From NCBI GenBank assembly GCA_903921205.1, contig CAIXPF010000205.1, forward strand, positions 26,657 through 90,656: a stretch of 64,000 nucleotides of DNA. Direction: 5' to 3'. This DNA comes from an uncultured Acidimicrobiia bacterium. GTDB lineage: Bacteria; Actinomycetota; Acidimicrobiia; Acidimicrobiales; CAIXPF01. The position numbers were made by a program, and so were the translations under genes. How positions within the stretch are numbered: the stretch's first letter is position 1; each line of letters opens with the position of its first letter. The notes beneath the pieces were generated by a model, which saw only the letters and a list, made by a program, of their open reading frames with translations, did no database searches and was not told where the DNA came from. Shown in pieces: positions 23,097 to 38,660 of this stretch.

Positions 23097-24493
23097 CCGC
23101 CGCGGGAGGCGTCTGGGCTCCCGGTAGCCGCGAGCTGACCGCGGCGCTCGTCGCCTCGGTCACCCTGGTGGGGTCCGAGACCCTGGCCATCGCCACCGTG
23201 ATGCCGGTGGTGTCCGACGAGCTCGGGGTCGCCGGCTACGGCTTGGCCTTCAGCGTCTTCTTCGTCGGCAGCATCGTCGGCGTCCTGCTTGCCGGCCCTG
23301 CGACCGACCGTGTCGGGCCACGGCGTCCCTTCCTGATCGGGATGGGACTGTTCGGCGCCGGGCTCGCGGTCGGTGCGCTGGCGCCGGCGATGCTCGTGTT
23401 GCTGGCGGGCCGTCTGTTGCAGGGTCTCGGGGCCGGGGTGATCCCGGCCGTCGGCTATGCCTGTATCGGACGGGCCTACCCCGAGCCTGCCCGGCCGCGC
23501 ATGCTGGCGGTGCTGTCCACCGCGTGGGTGCTGCCCGGCGTGATCGGTCCAGGCCTCGCCGGCTTCGTCGCCGGGCAGGCCGGCTGGCGTTGGGTGTTCG
23601 GCGGGTTGCTCCCGTTGGTCGTGCTCACCGCGGCCGCGGCGGTTCGGCCGCTCGGACGGCTGGACCCGGCGCCGGCGATTCTCCCGATCGGCGGTCTGCC
23701 GGTGCTCGACACCGTCCGCTTCGCTGCCGGCGTCGGTCTCGTGGTCGCCGCGGTCGACCGGCTGCTGCCCTTCGGCCTGCCGGCGGTGGCCCTGGCGGCC
23801 GTCATCGCCGCCGTCGGGGTGCTCTGCGCGGCGGGTCCAGCCCGCCGGTTGCTGCCGGCGGGCTGGTGGCGCGCCCGCCGTGGGGTCGCCGCTGCGGTGA
23901 CCGTGCGTGGGCTGTTGTCCTACGCGTTCCTGGCGGTCGATGCCTTCGTCCCGTTGGTGCTCACCGATGTGCGTGGGCGCTCCGTGGTGTTCGCCTCCCT
24001 CGCCGTCAGCGTCAGCGCGTTGGTGTGGAGCGCCGGGTCGTGGGCAGCCGAGCGACTCGTCTCTCGTTTCGGGGCCGCGAGGCTGTCGGCGGCAGGTGCG
24101 GCGCTGGTCACGGCAGGCGTGGCGGGGCAGATGGTGCTGCTGATCCCGGCGGTGCCGATCCCCCTCGGATTGGCGGGGGTGGCCGTCGCAGCCTTCGGGA
24201 TGGGGCTGTCGTTGACGCCGCTGTCGATGCTGGTCCTCGATCAGCGCGAAGAGGTGTCCACCGGCCGGGCGTCGTCGTGGATGGCCCTCTTCGAGCAACT
24301 CGGCTTCGCCGCCGGACCGCTCCTCGGTGGCCTGCTGGTGACGGCTGCGCCGATCCCGCCCGGCCTGACCCGAGGGTTGGCGGTGGCGTTCGCGGTTGCC
24401 GTGGCCATTGCGGCCTTGGCAACGGCGTTGCGGCCGCGCTTGCTGCCCGTCGCCCCACCGGGACGGCTCGTTGCCACACCGCCGAGCCGCTGA
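23093..24493 (+). CDS. MFS transporter
   Basis: 466 aa with about 12-14 hydrophobic helices. Overlaps the hisA stop codon by 4 nt. Substrate unknown. Confidence 0.75.
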   Translation: MTAAGGVWAPGSRELTAALVASVTLVGSETLAIATVMPVVSDELGVAGYGLAFSVFFVGSIVGVLLAGPATDRVGPRRPFLIGMGLFGAGLAVGALAPAMLVLLAGRLLQGLGAGVIPAVGYACIGRAYPEPARPRMLAVLSTAWVLPGVIGPGLAGFVAGQAGWRWVFGGLLPLVVLTAAAAVRPLGRLDPAPAILPIGGLPVLDTVRFAAGVGLVVAAVDRLLPFGLPAVALAAVIAAVGVLCAAGPARRLLPAGWWRARRGVAAAVTVRGLLSYAFLAVDAFVPLVLTDVRGRSVVFASLAVSVSALVWSAGSWAAERLVSRFGAARLSAAGAALVTAGVAGQMVLLIPAVPIPLGLAGVAVAAFGMGLSLTPLSMLVLDQREEVSTGRASSWMALFEQLGFAAGPLLGGLLVTAAPIPPGLTRGLAVAFAVAVAIAALATALRPRLLPVAPPGRLVATPPSR

Positions 24494-24536
24494 CCCCGTC
24501 AGGCCGGTGTCCGGCCGGCCCGGTGCCCGCCCCGGC

Positions 24537-25961
24537 TCAGTGTCCGGACGCGAGCACGTCGGTGGGGGTGCCCCCGGCCGGTTCGGGTCCGGCCCCCGGC
24601 CCCGCAAACGGTTCCGGCCCGCTGATCGCGCCCGATGCCGCTGTCGATGCCGAGCTGGTCGGTACGTCGAGCCGGCCGAGCCGCACGAACTGCAATGAGG
24701 CGGCCGAGGGGCTCTGCGTCGCCCAGGCCTGGATGTAGGGGTCGCCGGTCACCAGCACGATCTGGTGGTAGCTGGCGAGTCGGTGCACGGTCGCCAGGAG
24801 TTGCTGGACCTCTGCTGGGGCGAGGCCGGCGAAGGGATCGTCGAGCAGCAGCGGAAGGCGTTCGTGGCGTGCGCCGAGCCCGCGCAGCTCGATGACCCGG
24901 TCGACGAGCACCCGGGCGGCGTCCGCGGCCATGGAGTCCTCGGCGGCGAGCCGGTGCGAACCCAGCCGGCGTAACTCGGTCTTGCGGATGGCCAGCGCCT
25001 CGATCTGGCGCCGGTAGGCGAGCACCCACGGCAGCGACGCGCCATCGGTGAGCGCCTCCCAATCGGCACGGGCGGCCGCATGGGCCCGATCGGCTTCGAT
25101 GAGGGTCTGGCGGAGCAGGGGATCGGCCATCGGTCCGACCGTCGCCGCCAGGCGATCGAAGCGGGTCACGCCATGGGGCGCCAGCACCGCCCGTTCCTGA
25201 CGACGGATGCGCCACATCATGAACCGGTCCCCGACGGTGACGGCGGCGGACACCGCAGCGAGGAGCAGCAACGCATCGGCGGTGAAGGCGTTGTCGCCGA
25301 CCCGGTCGTGCAGGGCGGTGAGCACCAGACCGATCGCCACACAGACCGCGGTCAGCAGCGGCCCGATCCGTTGGACCGGGCGGTGCTCGCGCAGGTGGTC
25401 GACGGTCTCGTCGTGCAGTTCGGCCAGCTTCTCGAAGGCCTCGACATCGGCGAGCTCGGCACCGGGGAGATCGTTGTGGGCCGCATCGAGCTCGGCGCGG
25501 GTGCGGACCACGTCGTCGGCCGCCGCCCACAGCCGGGCCTGGTCGAGCGCTGCGAGGCGCCGAGCCAGCGGATGATCGTCGGTGCCGGTGTCGAAGCCAC
25601 GGTCGAGCTGGCGGGCTCCGAGGCGCAACACGTGCGCTGCCCGGTCGGCGCCCATCCCGACCCAGCTGAGCACGTCGAGACCCTGCGGCGTGCGGAACTC
25701 GTCGGTGACCTCGGCGCCGGCGTCGACGTCGATGACCTGGCTCGCCCCATGGAGGGGCCGGAAGACCACGAGATGACGGTGATCGTTGTCGATGATCTCG
25801 AGATGGTGGCCGGCACTCGCGGGGCCGAGGGCATGGACGAGTAGCGACAGGCATCGGCTGCGCATCGCCGGGTTCTCGTGGAACGCGACGGTCAACCCCG
25901 CGTGCAGGTCGAGCGTGAAGGTGCTCTGCGGTTCTTCGACGACGAGTCGCTGGATTTCCAC
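24537..25961 (-). CDS. SMC/RecF-like protein with a degenerate P-loop and a central transmembrane hairpin
   Basis: The GTG at 25961 is preceded by GGAAG (track ORF 24537..26120). The N-terminus has an SMC-head-like strand pattern ([34 protein letters not shown]) but lacks the GKS/T of Walker A. A long helical middle part contains two hydrophobic segments. The C-terminus has a Walker-B-like [12 protein letters not shown] followed by QIVLVTGD. Confidence 0.55.
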
Positions 25962-26055
25962 TGGCTTCCGATCCCGGACGGCTCGGCCCCGAAACCTAGT
26001 GGCAGCGGTTCGGCGAATCGGTGACCCCGCCGAGCGCCCGCCTAACATCGCACCG

Positions 26056-26826
26056 GTGTACGCGGTCCGAGTGATCCCCTGTCTCGACGTCGACAACGGT
26101 CGGGTGGTGAAGGGCGTCAACTTCGTCGGCCTCCGGGACGCCGGCGACCCGGTGGAGCTCGCCGCACGTTACGACGCCGAGGGCGCCGACGAGGTCGTCT
26201 TCCTCGACATCACCGCCAGCTCCGACGGTCGTCGGACCATCGTCGACCTGGCCCGTCGCACGGCCGAGACGCTGTTCATCCCGTTCACCATCGGCGGGGG
26301 CATCCGCAGCGTCGAAGACGCCCGGGAACTGCTGCGCGAGGGCGCCGACAAGGTCTCGGTCAACACCGCTGCCGTGCAGCGACCGGAGCTGGTCGACGAG
26401 CTGTCCGTCGAGTTCGGGGCCCAGTGCGTGGTCGTGGCGATCGACGCCCGCCGCAGCGACGCCACCGCCTCGGGCTTCGAGGTGTTCATCCGGGGTGGCC
26501 GGACCCCGACGGGGCTCGACGCCGTTGCCTGGGCGCAGGAGATCGAACGTCGTGGGGCGGGTGAGATCCTGCTCACCTCGATGGACCGCGACGGCACCAA
26601 GGATGGCTTCGACCTGCCGCTCACCCGGACGGTGAGCGAGGCGGTCAACATCCCGGTGATCGCCTCCGGCGGGGTCGGTACCCTCGACCACCTCGTCGAG
26701 GGGGTTCGCGACGGCAAGGCCGACGCAGTGCTCGCAGCGTCGATCTTCCACTTCGGCGAGTACACCGTGGGCGAGGCCAAGGCCACGCTGCGCGACGCCG
26801 GTTTCGCCGTGCGCCCAGCCGACTGA
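26056..26826 (+). CDS. hisF: Imidazole glycerol phosphate synthase, cyclase subunit
   Basis: The GTG at 26056 gives [23 protein letters not shown]..., and the HisF pattern is collinear to the end. I rejected the upstream part of track ORF 25786..26826. Confidence 0.95.
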
Positions 26827-26864
26827 TCGACGGTCGACCGATCGACGGTCGGCCGGTCGGCCGG

Positions 26865-27515
26865 TCAGGTGCTGGCGGAACCGAGCTGTCCGACGAAGGC
26901 TGACACCGCCTCGATCAGGAACGCGCTGTGGCCCCACAGGAAGTGGTCGGCGCCGGCCACCGTGACCACCTCGGTGTTCCTCCATCCGGCCACGGTGGCG
27001 GTCGCCTGGGCCGGCGGGTTGTACTGGTCGTGTTCCGGGCACAGCAGCAGCTTGGGCCGGGGGTCGTCGGCGACCGCGGCGAACCGTTCGGCGGCCACCA
27101 CCCGCAGCGGTGGGGCGATCGGGCTCCAGCCCGCCACCAGCGGGTGCGGCGTGGCCAGCGAGACGTCGGCACCGAAGGACCAGCCGGCGACCACCAGCGG
27201 GACGCTGAGGCCCCGCTCGGCCAGCGCCGCGGCGAGGGCATCGATGGCCGCGGTGACGTCGAACTGCTCGGCGCCGCCCTGGTCGTGGGTGCCGCTCGAT
27301 GCCCCGACGCCCCGGAAGTTGAACCGCAGGGCGGCGATATTCCGCTGGGGAAGGGCGCCGAACAGGGCGTCGGGCACCCCGTCGCGCATCGATCCGCCGT
27401 AGAGCGGGTGGGGATGGCACAACACCGCAGCACCGCGCACGTTCTCGGGGAGATGGATCTCGGCCTCGAGCCGTTCGCCATCGGCGGTCGTGAGCACCAG
27501 CGATTCTGCAGCCAT
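26865..27515 (-). CDS. Alpha/beta hydrolase fold protein
   Basis: The ATG at 27515 gives MAAESLVLTTADGERLEAEIHLP.... Contains HPHPLYGGSM and GWSFGA (a nucleophile-elbow-like motif). 216 aa. Confidence 0.7.
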   Translation of the reverse strand: MAAESLVLTTADGERLEAEIHLPENVRGAAVLCHPHPLYGGSMRDGVPDALFGALPQRNIAALRFNFRGVGASSGTHDQGGAEQFDVTAAIDALAAALAERGLSVPLVVAGWSFGADVSLATPHPLVAGWSPIAPPLRVVAAERFAAVADDPRPKLLLCPEHDQYNPPAQATATVAGWRNTEVVTVAGADHFLWGHSAFLIEAVSAFVGQLGSAST

Positions 27516-27912
27516 GACGGCGAACGCTAGCGTCGGGCTCGTGACCACGACGGATGGCGGCTCCGCTGCCGCAAGCAACCGGAAGCTGAGCGGGGCCGAG
27601 GGCCTCCCGATCACGATGCTGAGCGACCGCGTCCTGGTGAAAATGGAGCAGGCGGAAGGTGACCGGCGTTCCACCGGCGGCATCCTGATCCCGGCCACCG
27701 CGCAGATGGGCAAGCGGTTGGCCTGGGCGACCGTGGTCGCGGTCGGGCCCAACGTCCGTTCGATGCAGCAGGGCGACAAGGTGCTGTTCAACCCCGAGGA
27801 CCGCTACGAGGTCGAGGTCCGCGGCGATGACTACATCATCCTGCGCGAACGAGATGTCCACGCCGTCGCCGCCGAGCGCCTCGAGGACAGCGCCCACGGC
27901 CTGTACCTGTGA
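27514..27912 (+). CDS. GroES/Cpn10-like co-chaperonin family protein
   Basis: Cpn10 pattern: LSDRVLVK...GGILIP...VVAVGPN...GDKVLF...DDYIILRERDVHAV. The start is uncertain. The ATG at 27514 would share CATG with the divergent gene's start codon. The ATG at 27616 would give a typical 98-aa protein. Confidence 0.6.
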   Translation: MTANASVGLVTTTDGGSAAASNRKLSGAEGLPITMLSDRVLVKMEQAEGDRRSTGGILIPATAQMGKRLAWATVVAVGPNVRSMQQGDKVLFNPEDRYEVEVRGDDYIILRERDVHAVAAERLEDSAHGLYL

Positions 27913-27990
27913 TCCTGCCCGGGTCGGGCGCTGCGGCGCAGTACGGCACCGCGCTGGGTCAGGCGGTCGGGGCGGCGCTACAGTGCAGAC

Positions 27991-28041
27991 GTGCAACTCG
28001 TCGTGCCGGCTCGTTGGTGGTGGTCCAGCAAGACGGCGTGA
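27991..28041 (+). CDS. trpL: Candidate trp leader peptide (16 codons, three consecutive Trp codons)
   Basis: GTG CAA CTC GTC GTG CCG GCT CGT TGG TGG TGG TCC AGC AAG ACG GCG TGA encodes VQLVVPARWWWSSKTA. It is too short for the ORF track. It lies directly upstream of a terminator hairpin and of trpE(G). Confidence 0.6.
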   Translation: MQLVVPARWWWSSKTA

Positions 28042-28065
28042 CGCGTCCCGGTTGACGCAGCACAC

Positions 28066-28100
28066 AGGCCGTCCCGCTCGGGACGGCCTCTTTCGGTTTT
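28066..28100 (+). terminator. Attenuator-type intrinsic terminator upstream of trpE(G)
   Basis: A GC-rich hairpin pairs AGGCCGTCCCG (28066-28076) with CGGGACGGCCT (28079-28089) and is followed by CTTTCGGTTTTGG. The trpE(G) start is 50 nt further downstream. Confidence 0.65.
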
Positions 28101-28149
28101 GGGCGTCGGGCCGGTCCGGCCACCCTCAGAGGGCAGGAAGTCGTTCACC

Positions 28150-30447
28150 ATGTCGGAGCAGTCCTCCACGATGAGCCAGCAGTACCGCACCCTCGGTGGA
28201 ATCGTCGTCCACCGAACCGTCGAATCGGTGACCGCGGCGCCGGCCGTCGAGTCCCTCATCGACCGGCTCGATGCCCGCCGCGGGGTGTTGCTGTCCTCGA
28301 GCTACGAGTACCCGGGGCGCTACACCCGGTGGGATCTCGGCTTTGCCGACCCGCCGCTGTCGGTCTGGGCCCGTCAGCGAGAGGTTCACGTCGAGGCGCT
28401 CAACGCCCGCGGTGCCGTGCTGCTGCCGGCCGTCGCTGCGTCTCTCGGCGCGCTCGACCTCGATCGCGCCGAATCGACGTCGAATCGCCCCGACTTCGTC
28501 GAATCGGTGTCGATTCGGCCCGAGGGGATCGACCTCGTCGTCCGCCGCCCCGACCGCCGCTTCGAGGAGGAGGAACGCAGCCGTCAGCCCTCGGTCTTCT
28601 CGGTCGTCCGGACCCTCATCGATCTGTTCCGCTCCCCGGACGACCCCCATCTCGGCCTCTACGGCGCCTTCGGCTACGACCTGGCGTTCCAGTTCGAGGA
28701 GTTGCGGCTCCACCTGGAGCGTCCGGACGAGCAGCGGGACCTCGTGCTGTACCTGCCCGACGAGCTGCTCGTCGTCGATCATCGGCGCGAACAGGGCGAA
28801 CGCCGCCGGTACGACTTCACGGTGAGCGGCGCCGACGGCGCGCCCGTCACGACCCTGGGACTCGAGCGGTCCGGGGTGGCGTTGCGGTACCGGCCGCGGC
28901 CTGCCGTGGCGGCCGGAAGCGATCACCGACCGGGTGAGTACGCCGCCCTGGTCGATGAGGCCAAGGCCTCCTTCCGCCGGGGTGATCTGTTCGAGGTGGT
29001 ACCCGGCCAGTGTTTCACCGAGCCCTGTCCCGCCTCGCCGTCGGAACTGTTCCGTCGCCTGCGCGAGCGCAACCCGTCGCCCTACGGGTTCCTGATCAAC
29101 CTCGGCGAGGCGCCGACGCGCTCGGACCCCGAGGCGGGGGAGTGGCTGGTCGGTGCGTCCCCTGAGATGTACGTCCGGGTCGACGAGGACCGGGTGGAGA
29201 CATGCCCGATCTCCGGCACGATCGCCCGTGGACGCGACCCGATCTCCGACGCCGCCCAGATCCTGGCCCTGTTGAACTCCGACAAGGATGCGTCGGAGTT
29301 GACCATGTGCACCGACGTCGACCGCAACGACAAGTCGCGGATCTGCGTGCCCGGGTCGGTCAAGGTCATCGGCCGCCGCCAGATCGAGATGTACTCCCGG
29401 CTGATCCACACGGTGGATCATGTCGAGGGCCGCTTGCGTCCGGGCTTCGACGCGCTCGATGCCTTCCTCAGCCACACCTGGGCGGTGATGGTGACCGGGG
29501 CGCCGAAGGCGTGGGCGATGCAGTGGATCGAGGCCCACGAACGTTCGCCGCGGGCGTGGTACGGCGGCGCGGTGGGCATGGTCGGCTTCAACGGCAACAT
29601 GAACACCGGCCTGACCTTGCGCACCATCCGGCTGACCGGCGGCGCGGCCCAGGTCCGGGTGGGCGCAACGCTGCTGTTCGACTCCGACCCCGAGGCAGAG
29701 GAGGCCGAGACGCAGCTCAAGGCGTCGGCGTTCCTCGACGCGATCCGCAACCCCGGACCACCCGCAGCCCCTGCCGGAGCGACCCCGGGTCTGCTCAGCG
29801 GGGCGCCCGCCGGTCTGGCCGATGAGCCCGGTGCCGGCCGTCGGGTCCTGCTCGTCGATCACCAGGACAGCTTCGTGCACACCCTGGCCAACTACTTCCG
29901 GGCCACCGGCGCCGAGGTGGTCACGCTGTGCTGCCCGCCGGAAGGAGCAGGCCTCGACCCGGCCGAGCTCGACCGGGTCGCCCCCGATCTGGTGGTGCTC
30001 TCGCCCGGCCCGGGCCGGCCGAGCGATTTCGGCGTGGGCCGGACGATCGCCGCCGTCCTCGAGCGGGGCCTGCCGCTGTTCGGCGTGTGCCTGGGTCTGC
30101 AGGGCATCGTCGAGCACTTCGGTGGCGAGCTCGGCGTGCTGGATCCGCCCATGCACGGGAAGGCCTCGGCGATCGTGGCCGGGTCGACCGCGCTGTTCGC
30201 GGGCCTCCCGTCACCGTTCCTCGCCGGGCGCTACCACTCGCTGTTCGCCCGTGCCGAGCAACTCCCCGATGTCCTGCAGGCCACCGCACACAGCGATGAT
30301 GGGGTGGTGATGGCAATCGAGCACCGCACCCTGCCGGTGTCCGCCGTGCAGTTCCACCCCGAGTCGATCATGTCGCTCGGCGATGAGGCCGGCATGCAGC
30401 TGGTTGCCAACGTGCTACGGACGATGCCGGCGGCGAGACCGACGTGA
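28150..30447 (+). CDS. trpE: Anthranilate synthase, fused component I-component II, TrpE(G) type
   Basis: The ATG at 28150 is preceded by GGAAG. The N-terminus LSSSYEYPGRYTRWD and GAFGYDLAFQFE are typical of fused TrpE(G). The chorismate-binding core has PSPYGF, GTIARG and GGAVG. The C-terminal class I GATase domain has GVCLGLQG and FHPES. Confidence 0.9.
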   Translation: MSEQSSTMSQQYRTLGGIVVHRTVESVTAAPAVESLIDRLDARRGVLLSSSYEYPGRYTRWDLGFADPPLSVWARQREVHVEALNARGAVLLPAVAASLGALDLDRAESTSNRPDFVESVSIRPEGIDLVVRRPDRRFEEEERSRQPSVFSVVRTLIDLFRSPDDPHLGLYGAFGYDLAFQFEELRLHLERPDEQRDLVLYLPDELLVVDHRREQGERRRYDFTVSGADGAPVTTLGLERSGVALRYRPRPAVAAGSDHRPGEYAALVDEAKASFRRGDLFEVVPGQCFTEPCPASPSELFRRLRERNPSPYGFLINLGEAPTRSDPEAGEWLVGASPEMYVRVDEDRVETCPISGTIARGRDPISDAAQILALLNSDKDASELTMCTDVDRNDKSRICVPGSVKVIGRRQIEMYSRLIHTVDHVEGRLRPGFDALDAFLSHTWAVMVTGAPKAWAMQWIEAHERSPRAWYGGAVGMVGFNGNMNTGLTLRTIRLTGGAAQVRVGATLLFDSDPEAEEAETQLKASAFLDAIRNPGPPAAPAGATPGLLSGAPAGLADEPGAGRRVLLVDHQDSFVHTLANYFRATGAEVVTLCCPPEGAGLDPAELDRVAPDLVVLSPGPGRPSDFGVGRTIAAVLERGLPLFGVCLGLQGIVEHFGGELGVLDPPMHGKASAIVAGSTALFAGLPSPFLAGRYHSLFARAEQLPDVLQATAHSDDGVVMAIEHRTLPVSAVQFHPESIMSLGDEAGMQLVANVLRTMPAARPT
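28470..28517. repeat. Core repeat copies 3a (28470..28487, exact) and 3b (28500..28517, 16/18), in frame inside trpE(G)
   Basis: Copy 3a, CGAATCGACGTCGAATCG, is followed by CCCCGA, as in the 18.4-kb palindrome. Twelve nt later comes copy 3b, CGAATCGGTGTCGATTCG, followed by GCCCGAG. Together they are translated as A-ESTSNRPDFVESVSIRPE. Confidence 0.85.
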
Positions 30448-30468
30448 CCAGGACGCGAGGATGACGCA

Positions 30469-31356
30469 ATGACGACCGATCCGGCGACGATGAACCCGGC
30501 GAACCCGCTGCCTACGGACGTGTTCCAGGTCGAACTGCGGCGCGACGTCGTCGAGGCGACGGGTCCGGACACTGCGGCGTTCCTGCAGGGCCAGTTGAGC
30601 CAGGACGTTGCCGGCTTGGCCGTGGGGGAGAGCCGCTACAGCCTTCTGCTGCAACCACAGGGCAAGGTCGACGCCTGGTTGCGAGTGGTCCGCACCGGCG
30701 ACGAGACGTTCCTCCTCGATGTCGAGGAAGGCTGGGGCGAGGCGGTGATACGGCGCCTCGAGCGCTTCAAGCTGCGCACCCGTTGCAGCCTGGCCATGCT
30801 CGACGGGTGGCGCTGCTGGGCGGTGCGGGGGACCGATCGGTCGGCGGTGGCCGGGTCGGTCGGATCGACGGTGGCGGTGGTCGTCACGGCGTGGCCCGGT
30901 ACCCAGGGCTTCGACGCGCTCGGCGCCGGCCTCGGGCCGTTCGATGGCATCGTGGTGGTCGATACCGACCGGTATCTCGCAGCCCGCATCGCCGCCGGGG
31001 TCCCGGCCCTCGGCGCCGAGCTCGATGACAGCACCATCCCGGCCGAGGCCGGCAGTTGGCTGATCGAACGCTCGGTGAGCTTCACCAAGGGTTGCTACAC
31101 GGGCCAGGAGTTGGTGGCCAGGGTGGACAGCCGGGGCAGCAACACCCCGCGCAAGCTGCGCCGGGTCGAGGCCATCGGTGGCCTCCTCGACGGTGCCGAG
31201 CTGTTCGCCGGGCAGGAACCGGTCGGTGTCGTCACCTCGGCCACGTCCGACGGCCGCAGCGCCCTGGCGTACCTCAAGCGCTCGGTGGAGCCTCCCGCCA
31301 CGGTCGAACTCGCCGGTGGTGCGGCGGTCCGGGTGGATCCGCTTCCGGAGGGCTGA
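30469..31356 (+). CDS. ygfZ: YgfZ/GcvT-like folate-binding protein
   Basis: 295 aa with the aminomethyltransferase-like fold signature and the YgfZ motif KGCYTGQELVARV. Confidence 0.7.
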   Translation: MTTDPATMNPANPLPTDVFQVELRRDVVEATGPDTAAFLQGQLSQDVAGLAVGESRYSLLLQPQGKVDAWLRVVRTGDETFLLDVEEGWGEAVIRRLERFKLRTRCSLAMLDGWRCWAVRGTDRSAVAGSVGSTVAVVVTAWPGTQGFDALGAGLGPFDGIVVVDTDRYLAARIAAGVPALGAELDDSTIPAEAGSWLIERSVSFTKGCYTGQELVARVDSRGSNTPRKLRRVEAIGGLLDGAELFAGQEPVGVVTSATSDGRSALAYLKRSVEPPATVELAGGAAVRVDPLPEG

Positions 31357-31396
31357 GCGTGTCCCGATCCGCCGTCTGCGCCGTATCGTCTTCGCG

Positions 31397-32089
31397 GTGA
31401 GCCACTACGACGTGCTCGGCGTGTCCGCCGACGCCGATGCCGAGTCGTTGCGACGGGCGTTCGTAGCCCTCGCCCGTCGGTTCCACCCCGATCGTCACGT
31501 CGGGGCCGATGCGGCCACCCGTCGCGAGGCCGAACGCCGCATGCGCGAGATCACCGAGGCCTGGGCGGTTCTCGGCGACCCGGTGCGCCGTCGTCGCTAC
31601 GACCTCGGCTTGGGCGACCGGGCCCGCAGCGAGCGGGATCGTGCCGATGTCCCGGACCCGGGCAAGTCGGGACCGGGCACCGGCACCGGCCGAAGCGGTG
31701 CCAACGGCCGGGCGGCCACCACGAACACGACCGGTACGAACGGCCGGGCCGGCACCTCCTCGAACGCGGCGGGACCGAATGCCGCAGGCCCCGGCGCCGC
31801 AGCATCGCGTGGCGCCGGACGGGACTGGCGGGCCTACGCCAGTCCCGGCCCGGCGGCCGCGGATCGCCGCCCGGCGGGCGAGCAACTCCTGCTGCTGTCG
31901 CCGATCGTGCTCGTGGGCGCTGCGGGGATGTGCGGGTTGATGGGCGCGATCGTGGGCTGGCCGCCGTTCTACGCCGCAGCGCTGGTCTGCCTGATCGGCG
32001 CCGCGGCGGCGTTCTTCCTGCTGCCGATCCTGGCGATGACCCGGGGATCGTCACGGCGCGGCGGGCGGGGCCCGAAGCGGTCCTACTAA
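31397..32089 (+). CDS. J-domain (DnaJ-like) membrane protein
   Basis: The GTG at 31397 gives VSHYDVLGVSADADAESLRRAFVALARRFHPDR. A low-complexity Gly/Ala/Asn/Thr linker follows, then two C-terminal hydrophobic helices. Confidence 0.7.
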   Translation: MSHYDVLGVSADADAESLRRAFVALARRFHPDRHVGADAATRREAERRMREITEAWAVLGDPVRRRRYDLGLGDRARSERDRADVPDPGKSGPGTGTGRSGANGRAATTNTTGTNGRAGTSSNAAGPNAAGPGAAASRGAGRDWRAYASPGPAAADRRPAGEQLLLLSPIVLVGAAGMCGLMGAIVGWPPFYAAALVCLIGAAAAFFLLPILAMTRGSSRRGGRGPKRSY

Positions 32090-32099
32090 GGTCGCTGGC

Positions 32100-32414
32100 A
32101 TGTCGAAGCCCGCACTCATCGCCAAGATCACCGCTGCCGAAGGCAAGCGCGACGAGCTCATCGCCGCCTGCCAGAAGATGATCGACTACGTGACCGCCTC
32201 CGAGCCCGGCACCGAGGTGTACGTGCTGCACACCGACGGCAAGGACGAGAACGTGGTCTGGTACTACGAGCTCTACAGCGACAAGGACGCCCTCACCACG
32301 CACGGCACCAGCGAGGCGATGGCTGCGTTCGGCAAGGAGATCGCTCCGCTGCTCGGCGGCAAGACCGAGATCACCCGGCTCAGCCCGGTCTCCGGCAAGG
32401 GGCTGGCGCTCTGA
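32100..32414 (+). CDS. ABM-domain (antibiotic biosynthesis monooxygenase-like) protein
   Basis: 104 aa of the ferredoxin-like ABM/YgiN type (IAKITAAEGKRDEL...VWYYELYSDKDAL..H). Confidence 0.7.
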   Translation: MSKPALIAKITAAEGKRDELIAACQKMIDYVTASEPGTEVYVLHTDGKDENVVWYYELYSDKDALTTHGTSEAMAAFGKEIAPLLGGKTEITRLSPVSGKGLAL

Positions 32415-33193
32415 CGACCTACCTCGATCGGATCCTCGCCGCCCACCGGGCCACGGCCGCCGCAGAACGGCGCGATCTCGACGCGTTGGAGCGGCGTGCC
32501 CTGCAGACCTCGCCGACGCGTGGGTTCCGTCAGGCGTTGCGCCGGGCGGCGGCCGATCGGGGCGTGGCGGTGATCGCCGAGGTGAAGCGGCGCTCACCGT
32601 CCAAGGGCGATCTTGCGGTGGGCCTCGACCCGGCGGAGCTCGCCAACCGGTACGAACAGGGTGGCGCGGCGTGCATGTCGGTGCTCACCGACGAGGCGTT
32701 CTTCGGCGGCTCGGCGGACGACCTGCGCTCCGCCCGCTCGGCGTGCAGCATGCCGGTGCTGCGCAAGGACTTCACGGTCTGTCTCGCCGATGTGTTCGAT
32801 GCCCGGCTGATGGGGGCGGACTGCCTCCTGCTGATCGTGGCGGCGCTGAGCGACAGCGAGTTGAAGCAGTTCCACTCGGCGGCGGTCGGCGTGGGGCTGG
32901 ATGTTCTGGTGGAGATCCACGACGAGGCCGAGCTGGACCGCGCGTTGGCAGCAGGGGCGACGCTCGTCGGGGTCAACCAACGTGATCTCGTCACCTTCGA
33001 GGTCGACACCGATCGGGCGGTGCGCATGGCTGCACTGATCCCCGACGGGGTGCTCAAGGTGGCCGAGTCCGGTATTCGTGGCCGTGACGATGCGCTGGTG
33101 CTACGCGATGCCGGGTATGACGGATTGTTGGTCGGCGAGACGCTGGTGCGTTCGGCCGACCCGACACAGGCAGTGAAGGAGTTGTTGCCATGA
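32411..33193 (+). CDS. trpC: Indole-3-glycerol phosphate synthase
   Basis: IGPS motifs [19 protein letters not shown] and ESGI are present. The track ORF starts at a TTG at 32486. However, the in-frame upstream codons encode the conserved N-terminal helix ([12 protein letters not shown]...). The only start-like codon there is a CTG at 32411, which overlaps the upstream stop codon (CTGA). Confidence 0.85.
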
Positions 33194-34440
33194 CCCGCTG
33201 GAATCTCCCCCCCGACCGGATCCCCTCCGCTTGGTACAACGTGTTGCCCCGGTTCGAGACGCCGATGGACCCGGCGCTGCACCCGGGTACCCGCCAGCCG
33301 ATCGGCCCCGACGACCTCGCTCCGCTGTTCCCGATGGGCCTGATCCTGCAGGAGGTGTCGCCCGACCCGTGGATCGACATCCCCGGTGAGGTGCTCGACA
33401 TCCTGCGGCTGTGGCGTCCCACCCCGCTGGTGCGGGCAACCCGGCTCGAGGCAGCCCTCGGGACGCCGGCCCGGATCTACTTCAAGGACGAGTCGGTGTC
33501 CCCGGCGGGGTCCCACAAGCCGAACACCGCGGTTCCCCAGGCCTTCTACAACAAGCAGGAGGGCATCACCCGGCTCACCACCGAGACCGGTGCGGGGCAG
33601 TGGGGTACGGCGCTCAGCTTCGCATGCGCCCAGTTCGACCTCGAGTGCCTGGTGTACATGGTGCGCACCAGCTTCGACTCCAAGCCCTACCGCAAGGTCA
33701 TGATGCAGGCCTGGGGCGGCCAGTGTGTGCCGTCCCCGGTCGACGATCCGAGCCATCCGGGTTCGCTGGGCTCGGCCATCACCGACGCCGTGCGTGACGC
33801 GGTGAGCCGTGACGACACCCACTACGCGCTCGGCTCGGTGCTCAACCACGTGCTGCTGCACCAGACCGTGATCGGTCTCGAGGCCCGTGAGCAGCTGGAG
33901 ATGGCCGGTGAGCGTCTGCCCGACGTGGTGATCGCCCCGTGCGGTGGCGGTTCGAACCTCGGCGGGGTGGCGTTGCCGTTCTACGAGGACCGTTCGGTCC
34001 GGCTGTTGGCCGTCGAGCCGTCGTCGTGCCCGACCCTCACCGAGGGCCGCTTCGAGTACGACTTCGGCGACACCGGTGAAATGACGCCGCTGCTGCCGAT
34101 GTACACCCTCGGCCACGACTTCATCCCGCCGACCATCCACGCCGGCGGTCTGCGCTACCACGGCGATGCGCCGATCGTGTCCAAGCTCGTGAAGGACGGC
34201 CGCATGGAGGCGGTGGCGTACCCGCAGAGCAAGGTGTTCGACGCCGCGCTGCTTTTCGCCCGCACCGAGGGCAAGGTCCCCGCGCCGGAGGCCGCGCACG
34301 GCATCCGGGCCGCCATCGACGAGGCGCTCGCCGCCAAGGAGACCGGTGAGGAGAAGGTGATCCTGTTCAACTACTGCGGACACGGGCACCTCGACCTGCA
34401 GGCGTACGACGACTACCTGAACGGCCGGCTCGTCGACTGA
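33190..34440 (+). CDS. TrpB2-type tryptophan synthase beta-like PLP enzyme
   Basis: 416 aa with the TrpB2-type N-terminal extension ([10 protein letters not shown]...), the PLP-lysine motif GSHKPNTA, and TETGAGQWG. Overlaps trpC by 4 nt. Confidence 0.85.
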
Positions 34441-34460
34441 CGCTCCGCTCGTGCGGCGAT

Positions 34461-34513
34461 CCCGGGGGCGAATGGGTGCCGGTCCGACCGGCTCGGACCC
34501 ATTTCCCCCCGGG
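34461..34513 (+). other. Long imperfect hairpin in the trpB2-trpF spacer
   Basis: CCCGGGGG(cg)AATGGGT...ACCCATT(t)CCCCCGGG encloses an inner GCCGGT/ACCGGC stem. No U-tract follows. The spacer is 104 nt. Confidence 0.4.
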
Positions 34514-34544
34514 GTGTCGCCACCGCGGGTAGGTTGAGGCGGCC

Positions 34545-35213
34545 ATGTTCGTCAAGATCTGCGGCATCACCAGCGAGGAGGACGCGCTCCTCGCCGTTGC
34601 GCAGGGTGCCGACGCGGTCGGGTTCGTGTTCGCCCCGTCGCCGCGGCAGGTCGCCTCGGCGCTCGCCAGGGACATCGCCCGGCGGCTTCCGCCCGACGTG
34701 CTCACGGTCGGCGTGTTTCGCAACGAGGCCCCGGCTCGGGTGGTGGAGATCTGCCACTTCGCCGGGTTGCGGGCGGCACAGCTGCACGGTCACGAATCGG
34801 GCGAGGACTGCCGCTACGTGCGCAGCAGGGTCGGGCTGGTGATCAAGGGATTTCCCGCCGGATCGCTCGAGCTCGAGCGGTTCGACGACTACCACGCCGA
34901 CATCGCCCTCATCGACTCGCCGTCGCCGGGTTCGGGCCAGGTGTTCGACTGGTCACTCGCCGAGGGGGCACCGCCCAACCGTCGCCTGCTGCTTGCCGGG
35001 GGGCTCACCCCTGACAACGTCGCCGACGCCATCCACCGGGTCCGGCCCTGGGGGGTCGACGTGTCGAGCGGGGTCGAGTCCGCTCCCGGCCGGAAGGACG
35101 CACTGAAGGTGAGCCGCTTCGTGGCCAATGCCAAGGCTGCGGCACCCGATTCCGGCGGCTTCGACGATCTCCTCGACGATCCTGCTGCGCCGTTCGACTG
35201 GCAGCGCGACTGA
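34545..35213 (+). CDS. trpF: Phosphoribosylanthranilate isomerase
   Basis: 222 aa with the MFVKICGIT start and a collinear TrpF (beta/alpha)8 pattern. Confidence 0.9.
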
Positions 35214-35245
35214 GGTTCCGGGAACCCGGTTTCCCGGAGCGCCTC

Positions 35246-36463
35246 GTGAGCGAGCACAATCGATCCATGGCGCTCGCCCCTTCCTCACCCGCTCCGGTCA
35301 TGGGCAACCCCTCCGACGACGGCCGTTTCGGCCGTTTCGGTGGCCGTTTCGTGCCGGAGACCCTCGTTCCTGCCTGTCAGGAGCTCGAAGCGGCGTTCCG
35401 CGATGCCTGGGGTGACCCGACCTTTCGTGCCGAGTTCGACCACCTCCTGCGTACCTACGCCAACCGCCCTTCGCTGCTGTCGGAGTGCACCCGGCTGTCC
35501 GAACAGCTCGGGCTGCGGCTCATCCTCAAGCGTGAGGACCTCAACCACACCGGCAGCCACAAGATCAACAACGTGCTCGGCCAGGCCCTGTTGGCCAAGC
35601 GCATGGGCAAGACCAAGCTGATCGCAGAGACCGGCGCCGGCCAGCACGGTGTCGCCAGCGCCACCGCAGCGGCGCTGCTGGGCCTGGAGTGCGTGGTCTA
35701 CATGGGCGAGGTCGACATGGTCCGCCAGTCGCTCAACGTGTTCCGCATGAAGTTGCTCGGGGCCGAGGTCCGTCCGGCCATGAGCGGTTCGCGGACCCTC
35801 AAGGATGCGGTGAACGAGGCGATGCGGGCCTGGGTGTCCGACATCGCCGACACCCACTACCTGCTCGGCTCGGTCATGGGCCCCCACCCGTACCCGTGGA
35901 TGGTCCGCGAGTTCCACCGGGTCATCGGGGACGAGGCCCGCGAGCAGTGCCGGGAGCTCACCGGGGCCGATCCTGATGTCGTGGTGGCATGTGTCGGTGG
36001 CGGGTCGAACGCTGCCGGCATCTTCTCCGGGTTCGCCGAGCTGCCGTCCGTGCGTCTGGTCGGGGTCGAGCCGGCCGGTGGCGCTGCGGTCGGTCGGGGT
36101 GTGCCCGGCGTGGTGCACGGCATGTTGAGCTACCTGATGCAGGACGAGTTCGGCCAGGTGCAGGAGGCCGAGTCGGTGTCCGCCGGCCTCGACTATCCCG
36201 GCGTCGGGCCCGAGCACTCCCACCTCGCGGACATCGGGCGGGCCGAGTACCACCCGGTCAACGACGACGAGGTCATCGAGGCCTTCCAGCTGATGGCCCG
36301 GACGGAAGGCATCATCCCGGCGCTGGAGTGCGCCCACGCCCTGGCCTGGATCAGCCGGGAACGCGCTTCCATGAAGGGCCAGACGGTGCTGATGAACCTT
36401 TCCGGTCGTGGTGACAAGGACGTCGCGCAGGTGCAGTCCATTCTCGACGGCAGGCTGACGTGA
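35246..36463 (+). CDS. trpB: Tryptophan synthase beta chain (TrpB1 type)
   Basis: 405 aa with [23 protein letters not shown] and GGGSNAAG. Confidence 0.95.
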
Positions 36464-37239
36464 TCGATCTCGAGGCGCATCTCCGCCGGCGCCGCGCCGA
36501 GGGCCGCAAGCTGTTCGTGCCGTACGTGTCCGGCGGGCTCGACGGCGAATGGGTGGACCTGGTGCGGGCCTTCGCCGATGCCGGGGCCGATGCGATCGAG
36601 GTCGGGATCCCGTTCTCCGATCCGGTGATGGACGGCCCGACGATCCAGGAGGCCTCGGTACGCTCCCTGGAGCGGGGGACGACCCCGCACACGGTCGTCG
36701 CGGAGCTGCGGGGGGTGTCCGACGAGATCGGCGTCCCGTTGATCGTGATGACCTACTACAACATCGTCTTCCGGGCCGGTCATCGGCGTTTCGCGCAAGA
36801 GTTGGCCGAGGCGTCCATCTCGGGGGCGATCCTGCCCGACCTGCCGCTCGAGGAGGTCGGCCCGTGGGCCGAGGCGGCCGACGAGGCCGGTGTCGCCACG
36901 GTGCTGCTGGCCGCACCGACCGCTCCTGACGAACGGCTGCCGCGCATCTGCGAGCGGTCGCGCGGGTTCGTCTACGCCGTGTCCCTGCTCGGGGTGACCG
37001 GGGAACGGCAGTCGTTGGCCACCACCGCCGTGGGCATGGCCGAGCGGCTCAAGGCGGTCACCGATCGCCCGGTGATCATCGGGATCGGGATCTCCAACGC
37101 CGAACAGGCCCGTGAGGCCTGCTCGGTCGCCGACGGGATCGTCATGGCCTCGGCGTTGATGCGGCTGCGTCTCGACGGGGCGTCGGTCCAGGAGGTTGCC
37201 GCCGCCGCTCGTAAGGTTCGGGAGGCCATCGATGGCTGA
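36460..37239 (+). CDS. trpA: Tryptophan synthase alpha chain
   Basis: 259 aa with [15 protein letters not shown] and GFVYAVS. Overlaps trpB by 4 nt. Confidence 0.95.
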
Positions 37240-37633
37240 ATCCGGCGCCACGGGCGGTCCGTCGGTGCCTGAGGTGGCGCCGGAGGACTGCGAGCTGTGC
37301 GAAGCGGCTCGGTTCACCCACTGGTACCACGAGGACGACGTGTGCTGGGTTGCCGATTGCGAGGCCTGCGACTGCCCGATGGTGGTCTGGAAACAGCACG
37401 GCACCGCCGCCCCGGACGACGACATCGAGCACATGATGGCGCAGCTGGCCGCGGCCGGGCGTGAGCGCTTCGGTGACGACCCGTTCACCATCGACCGGGT
37501 TATGCGCCAGATCCCCTGGCACTTCCATGCCCACGCCCGGGATCGGCGTTGGCAGCAGCGGCGCTGGAGCAGCCAGCCGTCCCGCTACAGCGGTGCCGTC
37601 GGTGGCCCGCGGCTGCTGATCGAGACCACCTGA
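37232..37633 (+). CDS. HIT-like (histidine triad) domain protein
   Basis: The ATG at 37232 lies inside the last codons of trpA (ATGGCTGA; the two genes overlap by 8 nt). The protein has CELCE near its N-terminus and an H-x-H-x-H motif (WHFHAHARD). The family assignment is tentative. Confidence 0.5.
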   Translation: MAESGATGGPSVPEVAPEDCELCEAARFTHWYHEDDVCWVADCEACDCPMVVWKQHGTAAPDDDIEHMMAQLAAAGRERFGDDPFTIDRVMRQIPWHFHAHARDRRWQQRRWSSQPSRYSGAVGGPRLLIETT

Positions 37634-37648
37634 CGCGATCGTCCCCGG

Positions 37649-38116
37649 GTGGCCGGCCGTCGGCCACAGGGCCATGATGGTCGGGTGACCGACGAGCAGC
37701 CCGACTCCCGCGCCGACGCACCCGAACGTGAGACGGTCGAGGTCACCGTCTACGAGTTCGTCGGCGGGGAGCCGTTCTTCGCCACGCTGGTCGACCGCTT
37801 CTACGCCGGGGTCATGGCCGACCCGGTGCTGGCGCCGATGTATCCCGTCGACGACCTCGAGGGCGCCAAGTACCGCCTGCGCAGCTTCCTGGTGCAGTTC
37901 TGGGGTGGGCCGGACACCTACAGCCAGGAACGCGGCCATCCCCGGCTGCGGATGCGTCACTTCCCGTTCGCCATCGGCCAGGACGAACGCGACCGGTGGA
38001 TGACCCACATGCGTGCCGCCGTCGAGGCGGCGGAGACCATCCCCGAGGTCAAGGGCATGCTCCTGGGCTACTTCGAGAACTCCGCGACCGCCATGCGCAA
38101 CCAGGCGGATCGCTAG
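37649..38116 (+). CDS. glbO: Group II truncated haemoglobin (trHbO)
   Basis: Contains FVGGEPFFATLVDRFYAGV, MYP and FWGGPDTYSQERGHPRLRMRHFPF, which is characteristic of trHbO. The start is uncertain (GTG at 37649 or GTG at 37685). Confidence 0.8.
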   Translation: MAGRRPQGHDGRVTDEQPDSRADAPERETVEVTVYEFVGGEPFFATLVDRFYAGVMADPVLAPMYPVDDLEGAKYRLRSFLVQFWGGPDTYSQERGHPRLRMRHFPFAIGQDERDRWMTHMRAAVEAAETIPEVKGMLLGYFENSATAMRNQADR

Positions 38117-38152
38117 GAGCGGGCCCCGCCGGGCCGGTAGGGTCCTGGCCCG

Positions 38153-38581
38153 ATGGCTTCGCTTCCCACTCCGCACGAGGTGCTGCCGCACCGGGCCCCG
38201 TTCCTGTTCATCTCCGAGATCCTGGCCCTCGAGCCGGGGGTGCGGGCCGAGGCGAGCTGGCAGCTCACCGGCGAGGAGTTCTTCTTCCCCGGGCACTTTC
38301 CCGGTCGGCCGGTGCTGCCCGGAGTGCTGCAGATCGAGGCCATCGCCCAGTGCGGCGGGCTCACCCTTTGGGGCGACGACCGCTTCGTCGGCAAGCTGGG
38401 CCTGTTCGGCGGCGTCGAGAAGGCCCGGTTCCGTCGTCAGGTGCTGCCCGGCGACCAGCTGCACCTGAGCTTCGAGATGGCTCGGCTCTCCGCTCGAGCC
38501 GGCAAGGGAACCGGCCGTGCGGAGGTCGGCGGCGAACTGGCCTGCGAAGCCGAGCTGTTCTTCGTCATCGTCGACGCCTGA
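38153..38581 (+). CDS. fabZ: 3-hydroxyacyl-ACP dehydratase
   Basis: 142 aa hotdog fold with LPHRAPFLFI and FFPGHFPGRPVLPGVLQIEAIAQ. Confidence 0.9.
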   Translation: MASLPTPHEVLPHRAPFLFISEILALEPGVRAEASWQLTGEEFFFPGHFPGRPVLPGVLQIEAIAQCGGLTLWGDDRFVGKLGLFGGVEKARFRRQVLPGDQLHLSFEMARLSARAGKGTGRAEVGGELACEAELFFVIVDA

Positions 38582-38608
38582 CCGATCGCCGATCGCCGAT
38601 CGCACGCG

Positions 38609-38637
38609 CACGGGCCCGGCATGACGCCGGGCCCGTG
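38609..38637. terminator. GC-rich hairpin between convergent fabZ and fabF (possible bidirectional terminator)
   Basis: CACGGGCCCGGC pairs with GCCGGGCCCGTG in a 12-bp perfect stem around the loop ATGAC. There is no U-tract on either side. It is preceded by (CCGATCG)x3 at 38582-38602. Confidence 0.4.
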
Positions 38638-38660
38638 ACTCGGTGCGTTGTGGTGTCGGG

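Follow-up and report, generated by a model that had tools for sequence, protein, structure and literature searches.

A probable ribosome-mediated tryptophan attenuator upstream of the fused trpE(G) gene of an uncultured Acidimicrobiia bacterium

The stretch of 64,000 nucleotides (nt) analyzed here, hereafter the window, corresponds to positions 26,657 to 90,656 of contig CAIXPF010000205.1 (assembly GCA_903921205.1) of an uncultured Acidimicrobiia bacterium, and carries a short leader open reading frame (ORF) with three consecutive Trp codons, followed by a terminator hairpin, upstream of a fused anthranilate synthase gene, trpE(G). This element is very likely a ribosome-mediated, Trp-sensing transcription attenuator (trpL) controlling trpE(G), and probably also the trp genes behind it. 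A preliminary description, made from the window alone, had already read it as a ribosome-mediated attenuator, and the comparative evidence supports that reading. Direct reading also bears out the coordinates given there for the mini-ORF, the TGG run (28015-28023), the stop codon (28039-28041) and the trpE(G) start (28150). Three points had escaped it: the probable leaderless start, a predicted hairpin enclosing the Trp codons and the apparently derived length of 16 codons.

The regulated gene is a rhizobial-type fused TrpE(G) of clade 3, as had been proposed: the protein scores 1101 bits on NCBIfam PRK13566 (cut-off 645) and 1072.9 bits on TIGR01815 TrpE-clade3 (cut-off 739), and contains the Pfam domains PF04715 (Anth_synt_I_N), PF00425 (Chorismate_bind) and PF00117 (GATase). 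The leader ORF starts with GTG at 27991 and ends 108 nt 5' of the gene, and the ORF and terminator form a unit 60 nt upstream of it (Table 1). The nearest named relatives are metagenome-assembled genomes of Acidimicrobiales or Acidimicrobiia. Locus L001, the closest one of the genome collection, was obtained from a genome scan (77% protein identity) and loci L161-L172 from a protein search and 12 exact-protein look-ups (72-93%), and a metagenome scan returned only relatives of at most 67% identity. Homologous leader ORFs, with PARWWWSS before the stop, were found in seven relatives (L001, L161-L164, L167 and L168). The TrpE(G) proteins of these relatives are 75-93% identical to that of the window, and the flanking DNA has diverged. 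Between the window and L001 the leader region is about 90% identical, whereas the flanks and the protein (77%) are more diverged, which points to purifying selection. Conservation upstream of trpE(G) had been set beforehand as a test, and the ORF, the Trp codons, the terminator and the antiterminator strand are all kept in the relatives. Invariant in the alignment of the eight leaders (A2) are the TANNNT box, the TG of the start codon, the nine Trp-codon bases, AG-CGGC in segment 2, GCCG-CCC in segment 3, GGG-CGGC in segment 4 and parts of the U-tract.

The intrinsic terminator, formed by segments 3 and 4, has a GC-rich stem with CTTTCGGTTTTGG directly 3' of it. It lies where the preliminary description had placed it (28066-28089); of the 10-11 bp proposed for the stem, 10 bp holds and 11 bp does not. 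Across the eight sequences 98.8% of the cells of helix 3:4 are paired and two pairs show compensatory changes. A consensus terminator scan of the + strand between 25700 and 38200 returned the leader hairpin, the sole strong candidate in these 12.5 kb, and one other site, of 5 bp. The predicted terminated RNA measures about 108-110 nt. When folded, the 110-nt RNA (27991-28100) reaches -54.5 kcal/mol, its minimum free energy (MFE) structure being identical to the centroid, with z = -2.64 and 2 of 200 shuffles as stable. This fold comprises a hairpin between segments 1 and 2 (1:2), a middle hairpin and the terminator.

The segment 2 core GACGGC (28032-28037) is an exact complement of GCCGTC (28068-28073) in the 5' arm of the terminator, a match that had been reported and ranked as a weak antiterminator candidate. 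The pairing stands, being possible in 8/8 sequences, supported by covariation and recovered as the MFE structure with a stalled ribosome; the qualifier does not. A 6-nt match is indeed weak in the window alone, but the whole arrangement is kept in seven relatives and its core recurs upstream of trpE(G) elsewhere, which speaks for more than chance. Judged from the alignment, helix 2:3 (6 bp) is the best-conserved alternative helix, with 100% of its cells paired. The second of its pairs (28033 with 28072) varies between A-U (five sequences), G-C (two) and G-U (one), and the segment-3 partner forms U-G, U-A or C-G with segment 4, as alternative pairing predicts. In hairpin 1:2, where 82.7% of the cells are paired, Trp codon 1 lies in the stem and Trp codons 2 and 3 in the loop. 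The middle hairpin, which the antiterminator helix encloses, has 87.5% of its cells paired and one compensatory pair. RNAalifold, run unguided on A2, recovers the inner 10 pairs of 1:2, the middle hairpin and the terminator.

RNAalifold also draws a GUGC/GCAC helix closing the 5' end (27991-27994 with 28060-28063) in 6/8 sequences. According to this model, the helix could bury the 5'-terminal start codon in the released RNA and so limit its re-translation. Two other candidate structures were set aside. A pairing of the UGG codons with CCACC at 28121-25, part of the MFE structure of 27975-28152, was rejected on account of its lack of conservation in L163 and L164 and of its z-score (z = -1.45), and a short hairpin before the Shine-Dalgarno (SD) sequence of trpE(G), at 28122-28133, was dropped as no better than shuffles (z = +0.68).

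Since equilibrium folds cannot separate the two states of the leader, the RNA was instead cut just before segment 4 and folded under constraints, with the ribosome assumed to cover about 13 nt 3' of its A site. With the ribosome on Trp codon 1 or 2, the MFE structure is helix 2:3 around the middle hairpin in 8/8 sequences (-17 to -25.7 kcal/mol). When the ribosome is left out, hairpin 1:2 sequesters segment 2 and segment 3 stays free in 5/8 (window, L001, L163, L167 and L168). A ribosome at the stop codon, which adjoins or overlaps segment 2, covers that segment under the assumed footprint.

Taken as a switch, the element would work as follows. Transcription would begin about 6 nt after TACAGT, with the RNA 5' end at or next to the GUG, and, as the conserved features suggest, translation would start without an SD sequence. 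When charged tRNA-Trp is plentiful, the ribosome would pass the three UGG codons and reach the stop at 28039-41, covering segment 2 (28032-37); if no ribosome is loaded, segment 2 would be held in hairpin 1:2. In either case segment 3 would be free to pair with segment 4, and the 10-bp terminator and the U-tract would release the RNA of about 110 nt. A shortage of tRNA-Trp would stall the ribosome with Trp codon 1 or 2 in the A site; 1:2 would melt and 28032-37 stay exposed, free to pair with 28068-73 around the middle hairpin ahead of the synthesis of segment 4. This would block the terminator and let RNA polymerase continue into trpE(G).

Table 1. Features of the trpL-trpE(G) region (window coordinates) and leader peptides of the window and its relatives.
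Feature	Position	Strand	Remarks
Upstream neighbours	hisF 25786-26826; GroES-like Cpn10 gene 27490-27912		hydrolase gene on minus strand
Tentative -35-like hexamer TGGGTC	27955..27960	+	18 nt 5' of -10 box; weak, putative
-10 box TACAGT (actinobacterial TANNNT type)	27979..27984	+	6 nt 5' of leader start codon
trpL leader ORF	27991..28041	+	16 codons + TGA, peptide VQLVVPARWWWSSKTA; read directly from 27700-28400
Hairpin 1:2 (protector/pause)	28000..28042	+	pairs 28000-08/28034-42, 28010-11/28031-32, 28013-17/28025-29
Trp codon run (sensing site)	28015..28023	+	TGG TGG TGG; invariant in 8/8 leader sequences
Segment 2 core GACGGC (antiterminator strand)	28032..28037	+	complements GCCGTC 28068-28073
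Middle hairpin GCGUC-CCGGUU-GACGC	28043..28058	+	pairs 28043-47/28054-58; enclosed by antiterminator helix
Intrinsic terminator hairpin	28066..28089	+	segment 3 28066-75 AGGCCGTCCC, loop GCUC, segment 4 28080-89 GGGACGGCCT
Split U-tract CUUUCGGUUUU	28090..28100	+	YUUYC-NN-UUUY kept in 8/8; predicted 3' end
Shine-Dalgarno AGGAAG of trpE(G)	28135..28140	+	kept in L161, L162; ATG at 28150
trpE(G), fused anthranilate synthase	28150..30447	+	PRK13566, TIGR01815; first gene of same-strand cluster
Downstream same-strand genes	30469..37239	+	ygfZ-like, DnaJ-domain, ABM, trpC, trpB, trpF, second trpB-like, trpA (Pfam)
Leader peptide, window			VQLVVPARWWWSSKTA
Leader peptide, L161			MEFVVPARWWWCSKTA
Leader peptide, L162			VQVVGRAHWWWSS
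Leader peptide, L163			VRCVNPARWWWSS
Leader peptide, L164			VRRAVPARWWWSS
Leader peptide, L001 and L167 (identical)			VHRSQPARWWWSS
Leader peptide, L168			VHAPSTTRTSWWWLA

All eight leaders contain a single TANNNT in the 45 nt upstream, always 6-8 nt before the GTG or ATG, against a background in these loci of 0.0007 per position, and the T, A and T of this -10 box are invariant columns of the alignment. No SD-like motif was found in the last 16 nt before the leader ORF in any of the eight sequences. A TANNNT box at 6-8 nt from the start codon together with the lack of an SD motif suggests that the leader mRNA, with its start placed by the conserved -10 box, is probably leaderless, that is, devoid of a 5' untranslated region. 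In the window, L161, L162, L163 and L167 the -10 box is preceded at 17-18 nt by a tentative -35-like hexamer, (C)TGGGTC, CGGGTC or TGGTGA, which is absent in L164, L001 and L168. A scan with the sigma-70 consensus found nothing, and the promoter call relies on the conserved TANNNT box. Leaderless leader transcripts of this kind have precedents: the attenuator RNA of Sinorhizobium meliloti trpE(G) is leaderless and 110 nt long (PMC6614838), and in Streptomyces lividans the trpL1 ORF (...NWWWT...) before trpE is leaderless according to transcription start site (TSS) mapping and is followed by predicted hairpins and a U-stretch (PMC8079986). Also, AUG or GUG forms the 5' start of mycobacterial leaderless mRNAs (bioRxiv 10.1101/834739).

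The position of the leader stop codon varies around segment 2. Five relatives (L001, L162, L163, L164 and L167) have a 13-codon ORF with a UAG stop two codons past the Trp run, the G of the UAG being base 1 of segment 2 (AGC UAG ACGGC). L168 has a 15-codon ORF with a UGA stop, likewise two codons past the Trp run, and segment 2 starts right after it. In the window and L161 an AAG occupies the ancestral UAG position (28030), and the ORF runs on for three codons to a UGA just past segment 2. On the evidence of this alignment, the 16-codon length of the window ORF is a derived state, the stop shift having added three residues to the 13 of the ancestral peptide.

In all of L161-L172 the genes follow one another as hisF, hydrolase, GroES-like gene, trpE(G), ygfZ-like gene, DnaJ, ABM and trpC. 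In the window and the seven leader-bearing relatives a spacer of 165-235 nt separates the GroES-like stop from trpE(G). In six other relatives (L165, L166 and L169-L172) that stop abuts or overlaps the trpE(G) start and the leader is missing; the position of the GroES-like stop at the trpE(G) start in L166, L169, L171 and L172 suggests translational coupling. No tandem-Trp ORF, match to the leader covariance model or Rfam family was detected in these six loci, nor in L007, L009, L011, L014 and L015. The latter five belong to sister clades (Poriferisodalis, Microthrix) that also have a fused trpE(G). In a neighbor-joining (NJ) tree of TrpE(G), sequences without a leader are scattered among those that have one, and outgroups from other phyla bear leaders with three Trp codons. 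Most simply, the leader would be ancestral and would have been lost at least three times independently, a count that the rough NJ tree makes tentative.

These patterns bear on whether the hairpin is a plain terminator of the GroES-like gene and the mini-ORF a chance frame in GC-rich intergenic DNA, an explanation we regard as highly improbable. The hairpin does lie 154 nt past the GroES-like stop on the same strand, the wider region 27975-28152 folds unexceptionally (z = -1.45), and TGGTGGTGG is not rare, occurring seven times in the window against 0.7 expected (about 10x over-represented). However, a -10 box conserved in 8/8 sequences stands between the GroES-like stop and the mini-ORF, and the Trp codons, frame and stop position are kept, whereas the DNA from the GroES-like stop to the -10 box is not. 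The succession of Trp codons, stop, GRCGGC, GCCGYC, GRCGGC and U's also precedes trpE(G) in phyla without a GroES-like neighbor. Where the leader is lacking and the GroES-like gene and trpE(G) abut, the hairpin is lacking too, and a hairpin lost together with the leader belongs to the leader and not to the GroES-like gene. As a side effect, the leader hairpin may also stop read-through from upstream. Among the seven TGGTGGTGG copies only that of the leader falls in a short intergenic ORF. The other six (2878, 16541, 22663, 49593, 51249 and 59102) lie inside long ORFs, off-frame, are read as GGG or VV(V/A), and are not further leader peptides.

The losses could also indicate that the window element is a relic, still recognizable and no longer regulating, or regulating only weakly via polarity. 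Six Acidimicrobiia relatives lack the leader, after apparently at least three separate losses, the ancestral UAG is gone from the window and L161, and the U-tract is interrupted. Yet all parts are intact in the window (-10 box, start codon, three UGG codons, segments 1-4 and U-tract), the identity of about 90% to the L001 leader, against more diverged flanks and protein, speaks for purifying selection, and the new UGA stop keeps the terminating ribosome on segment 2. We therefore consider a decayed element improbable, if somewhat less so than a GroES-like terminator.

In order to place the attenuator in a wider context, regions upstream of trpE(G) in other phyla were compared. In most of the 149 trpE(G) loci compared, which represent many phyla, an ORF with tandem Trp codons precedes the gene by about 130 nt; within this set such ORFs are missing from cyanobacterial trpE(G) copies and from the Poriferisodalis and Microthrix clades. 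Of 153 regions upstream of trpE(G), 36 contain a core string composed of Trp codons, 0-30 nt, GRCGGC, 10-60 nt, GCCGYC, a loop, GRCGGC and a U-rich tail; among 961 control windows taken from inside the gene, a single one does. Represented among the 36 are Acidimicrobiia, Methylomirabilia, Vicinamibacteria, Binatia, Myxococcota, Rhizobiaceae and Roseibium. GRCGGC follows right after the leader stop codon in rhizobia and in other phyla, and the cores of Ensifer (UGGUGGUGGGCUCGCUGAGGCGGCC) and of the Acidimicrobiia locus L168 (UGGUGGUGGCUCGCCUGAGGCGGCC) are nearly identical. A covariance model built from A2 gave full-length matches just upstream of trpE(G) in four loci of other phyla, L083 (31.5 bits), L010 (29.6 bits), L112 (27.4 bits) and L082 (22.9 bits), and about 16 bits in rhizobia. 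As the same attenuator core usually accompanies trpE(G) in groups ranging from Rhizobiaceae to Acidimicrobiia, Methylomirabilota, Binatia and Myxococcota, the gene and its attenuator seem to be passed on together, by descent or by transfer.

The attenuator RNA of S. meliloti, since renamed rnTrpL, is represented in Rfam as family RF02552 (RcsR1; PMC6614838). The only match of this family in the window falls exactly on the leader element (27980-28093, full model 1-96) with 18.2 bits (E = 1.2; gathering score 60), while the rhizobial loci L041, L030 and L039 score 105, 87 and 62 bits; in L001 there was no match at the gathering score. The element is probably a distant relative of the RcsR1 family that, to judge by its conserved parts, would work alike. 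Comparison with the S. meliloti leader, which the preliminary description had proposed, is therefore apt, RcsR1 being that very attenuator and its sole, sub-threshold window match lying on the leader. The element may accordingly be pictured as part of an old attenuator lineage that would have moved with the fused trpE(G) across phyla, with rhizobial rnTrpL/RcsR1 as its studied branch. At the gathering score, Rfam yielded nothing across 24000-39000, nor in the leader-lacking or sister-clade loci, and no T-box, riboswitch, proteobacterial Trp leader or other cis-regulatory Rfam family of this kind was found at E <= 10 in 27000-29000.

The latter result concerns a further alternative, namely that Trp status is sensed without translation of the mini-ORF, by a T-box-like recognition of tRNA-Trp, a TRAP-like protein or a small-molecule riboswitch. 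T-box or TRAP control of trp genes is frequent in Gram-positive bacteria and the leader RNA is well structured (z = -2.64), both of which count in favor of such sensing. Against it, besides the Rfam result, direct reading reveals no array of (G/U)AG repeats, and the invariant features are those of a leader peptide: a start codon at the RNA 5' end, in-frame UGG codons in a run of three and a stop beside segment 2. We give translation-free sensing as little credence as a GroES-like terminator, and retain ribosome-mediated attenuation as the preferred interpretation.

Several observations weigh against ribosome-mediated attenuation or limit the support for it. The U-tract is interrupted (CUUUCGGUUUU), and the outer part of 1:2 is not conserved in L162, L164 and L168. 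Equilibrium folding keeps the terminator under every ribosome constraint, as is likewise the case in other attenuators, and the attenuation model thus depends on kinetics. Stalling on the third Trp codon would, with the assumed footprint, leave segment 2 partly covered by the ribosome. The comparison comprises only eight related sequences in which most helix positions are invariant, so that the covariation is thin (one covarying 2:3 pair) and supportive rather than decisive; also, relatedness alone can exceed the shuffle controls of the tool. The transcription start is derived from the sequence. The six close relatives without a leader indicate that it is dispensable, and with 18.2 bits against a gathering score of 60 the element falls outside RcsR1 by the Rfam criterion.

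In its organization the element shares with rnTrpL of S. meliloti the location upstream of a fused TrpE(G) of TIGR01815, a short ORF with three Trp codons near its end and a stop beside a GRCGGC segment 2, and a GCCGYC/GRCGGC terminator followed by U's. The three mutually exclusive stem-loops of the S. meliloti attenuator, designated SL1, SL2 and SL3 (PMC6614838), have predicted counterparts here, and common to both are also a terminated RNA of about 110 nt that is leaderless (here by deduction) and Trp codons about 135 nt before the gene. Unlike rnTrpL, the window element scores 18.2 bits on RF02552, compared with 62-105 bits in rhizobia, belongs to a host of a different phylum, has a GUG start and an actinobacterial TANNNT promoter, and encodes a peptide that differs outside the Trp run. 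Its ORF runs through segment 2 (16 codons), and its trpE(G) heads a long trp cluster instead of standing alone.

Predictions of classical trp attenuators within the Actinomycetota exist for Corynebacterium and Streptomyces, with antiterminator and terminator structures and conserved complementary GC-rich triples (PMC1262725), and experimental support for trp attenuation in C. glutamicum and S. venezuelae is cited in PMC4833913. By its published description, Streptomyces trpL1 shares with the window element the phylum, the run of three Trp codons (MFAHSTRNWWWTAHPAAH) and the hairpins and U-stretch before trpE, its leader ORF also being leaderless by TSS mapping (PMC8079986). Unlike these Streptomyces and Corynebacterium leaders, the present one belongs to the class Acidimicrobiia. 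With mycobacterial polycysteine ORFs it has in common that they are actinobacterial leaderless short ORFs, rich in codons for the amino acid of the downstream operon, that act as attenuators (bioRxiv 10.1101/834739). They differ in the amino acid and in having no obvious intrinsic terminator (PMC1262725), whereas the window element has a canonical hairpin and U-tract.

The resemblance to Escherichia coli trpL extends to the tandem Trp codons in segment 1, the predicted helices 2:3 and 3:4 and the intrinsic terminator, and to the logic of a 1:2 pairing, here tentative, that would lead to termination if the leader is untranslated. In contrast to E. coli trpL, the leader has three Trp codons instead of two and is probably translated from a leaderless RNA, not with the help of an SD sequence; no TrpR operator is evident and no similarity to any Rfam leader family was detected.

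The element is, in sum, an ordinary example of the classic switch known from rhizobia, Streptomyces and E. coli, and the understanding of attenuation is unchanged by it. Modest additions, drawn from sequence comparison, are the probable leaderless translation, the apparently derived shift of the stop codon and the putative travelling of the attenuator with trpE(G) across phyla combined with its repeated loss. A literature search combining Acidimicrobiia, tryptophan and attenuator found no paper linking them in the library covered, and the element adds a small ORF, a promoter, a terminator and a regulatory RNA to the annotation of the poorly studied and largely uncultured Acidimicrobiia. It also leads to the prediction that charged tRNA-Trp governs the expression of trpE(G) and, probably, of the genes as far as trpA, indicates that RcsR1 as defined in Rfam represents a single branch of a far more extensive RNA family, and offers, in the repeated loss of the leader among close relatives, a natural comparison for when attenuation is dispensable.

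In Sinorhizobium, action in trans is reported for rnTrpL, with trpDC as a target, and for the peptide peTrpL. By analogy, as the preliminary description had suggested for the RNA, the RNA of about 110 nt, and perhaps the 16-residue peptide, might act in trans on unlinked genes (e.g. trpD, absent from the cluster), and trpL-trpE(G) might be a self-regulating cassette that moved between phyla, its leaderless attenuator included, and replaced the native trpE at the actinobacterial his-trp locus. We consider this extended scenario speculative and unlikely. The absence of trpD is a weak negative, as the window was scanned with two motifs (GTGGD and KHGN[RKS]), neither of which was found.

The genes around the leader show further features. 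The GroES-like gene (27490-27912) scores 69 bits on Pfam Cpn10, under all the NCBIfam GroES cut-offs, and is thus divergent; among the Acidimicrobiia relatives it is always directly upstream of trpE(G). Downstream, no strong terminator-like site was detected between the cluster genes in the terminator scan, and the genes from trpE(G) to trpA are possibly co-transcribed as one operon. Between trpE(G) and trpC (30469-32414) lie a YgfZ/GCV_T-like folate-binding gene, a DnaJ-domain gene and an ABM monooxygenase-like gene, whose position is kept in L161-L172. These three are not known to contribute to Trp synthesis, and they may share the control of the attenuator.

Two PALP-domain (trpB-like) genes flank trpF (33190-34440 and 35246-36463). 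Of the two, the first overlaps trpC and the second trpA, the latter being the arrangement expected of a canonical trpB. The 104-nt spacer between the first of them and trpF (34441-34544) is predicted to fold as a single long near-perfect hairpin (-65.5 kcal/mol, z = -3.29, 0/200 shuffles as stable), without a U-tract, unique in the window and matched by no Rfam family, which could represent a terminator lacking a U-tail, an mRNA-stabilizing element or a processing site.

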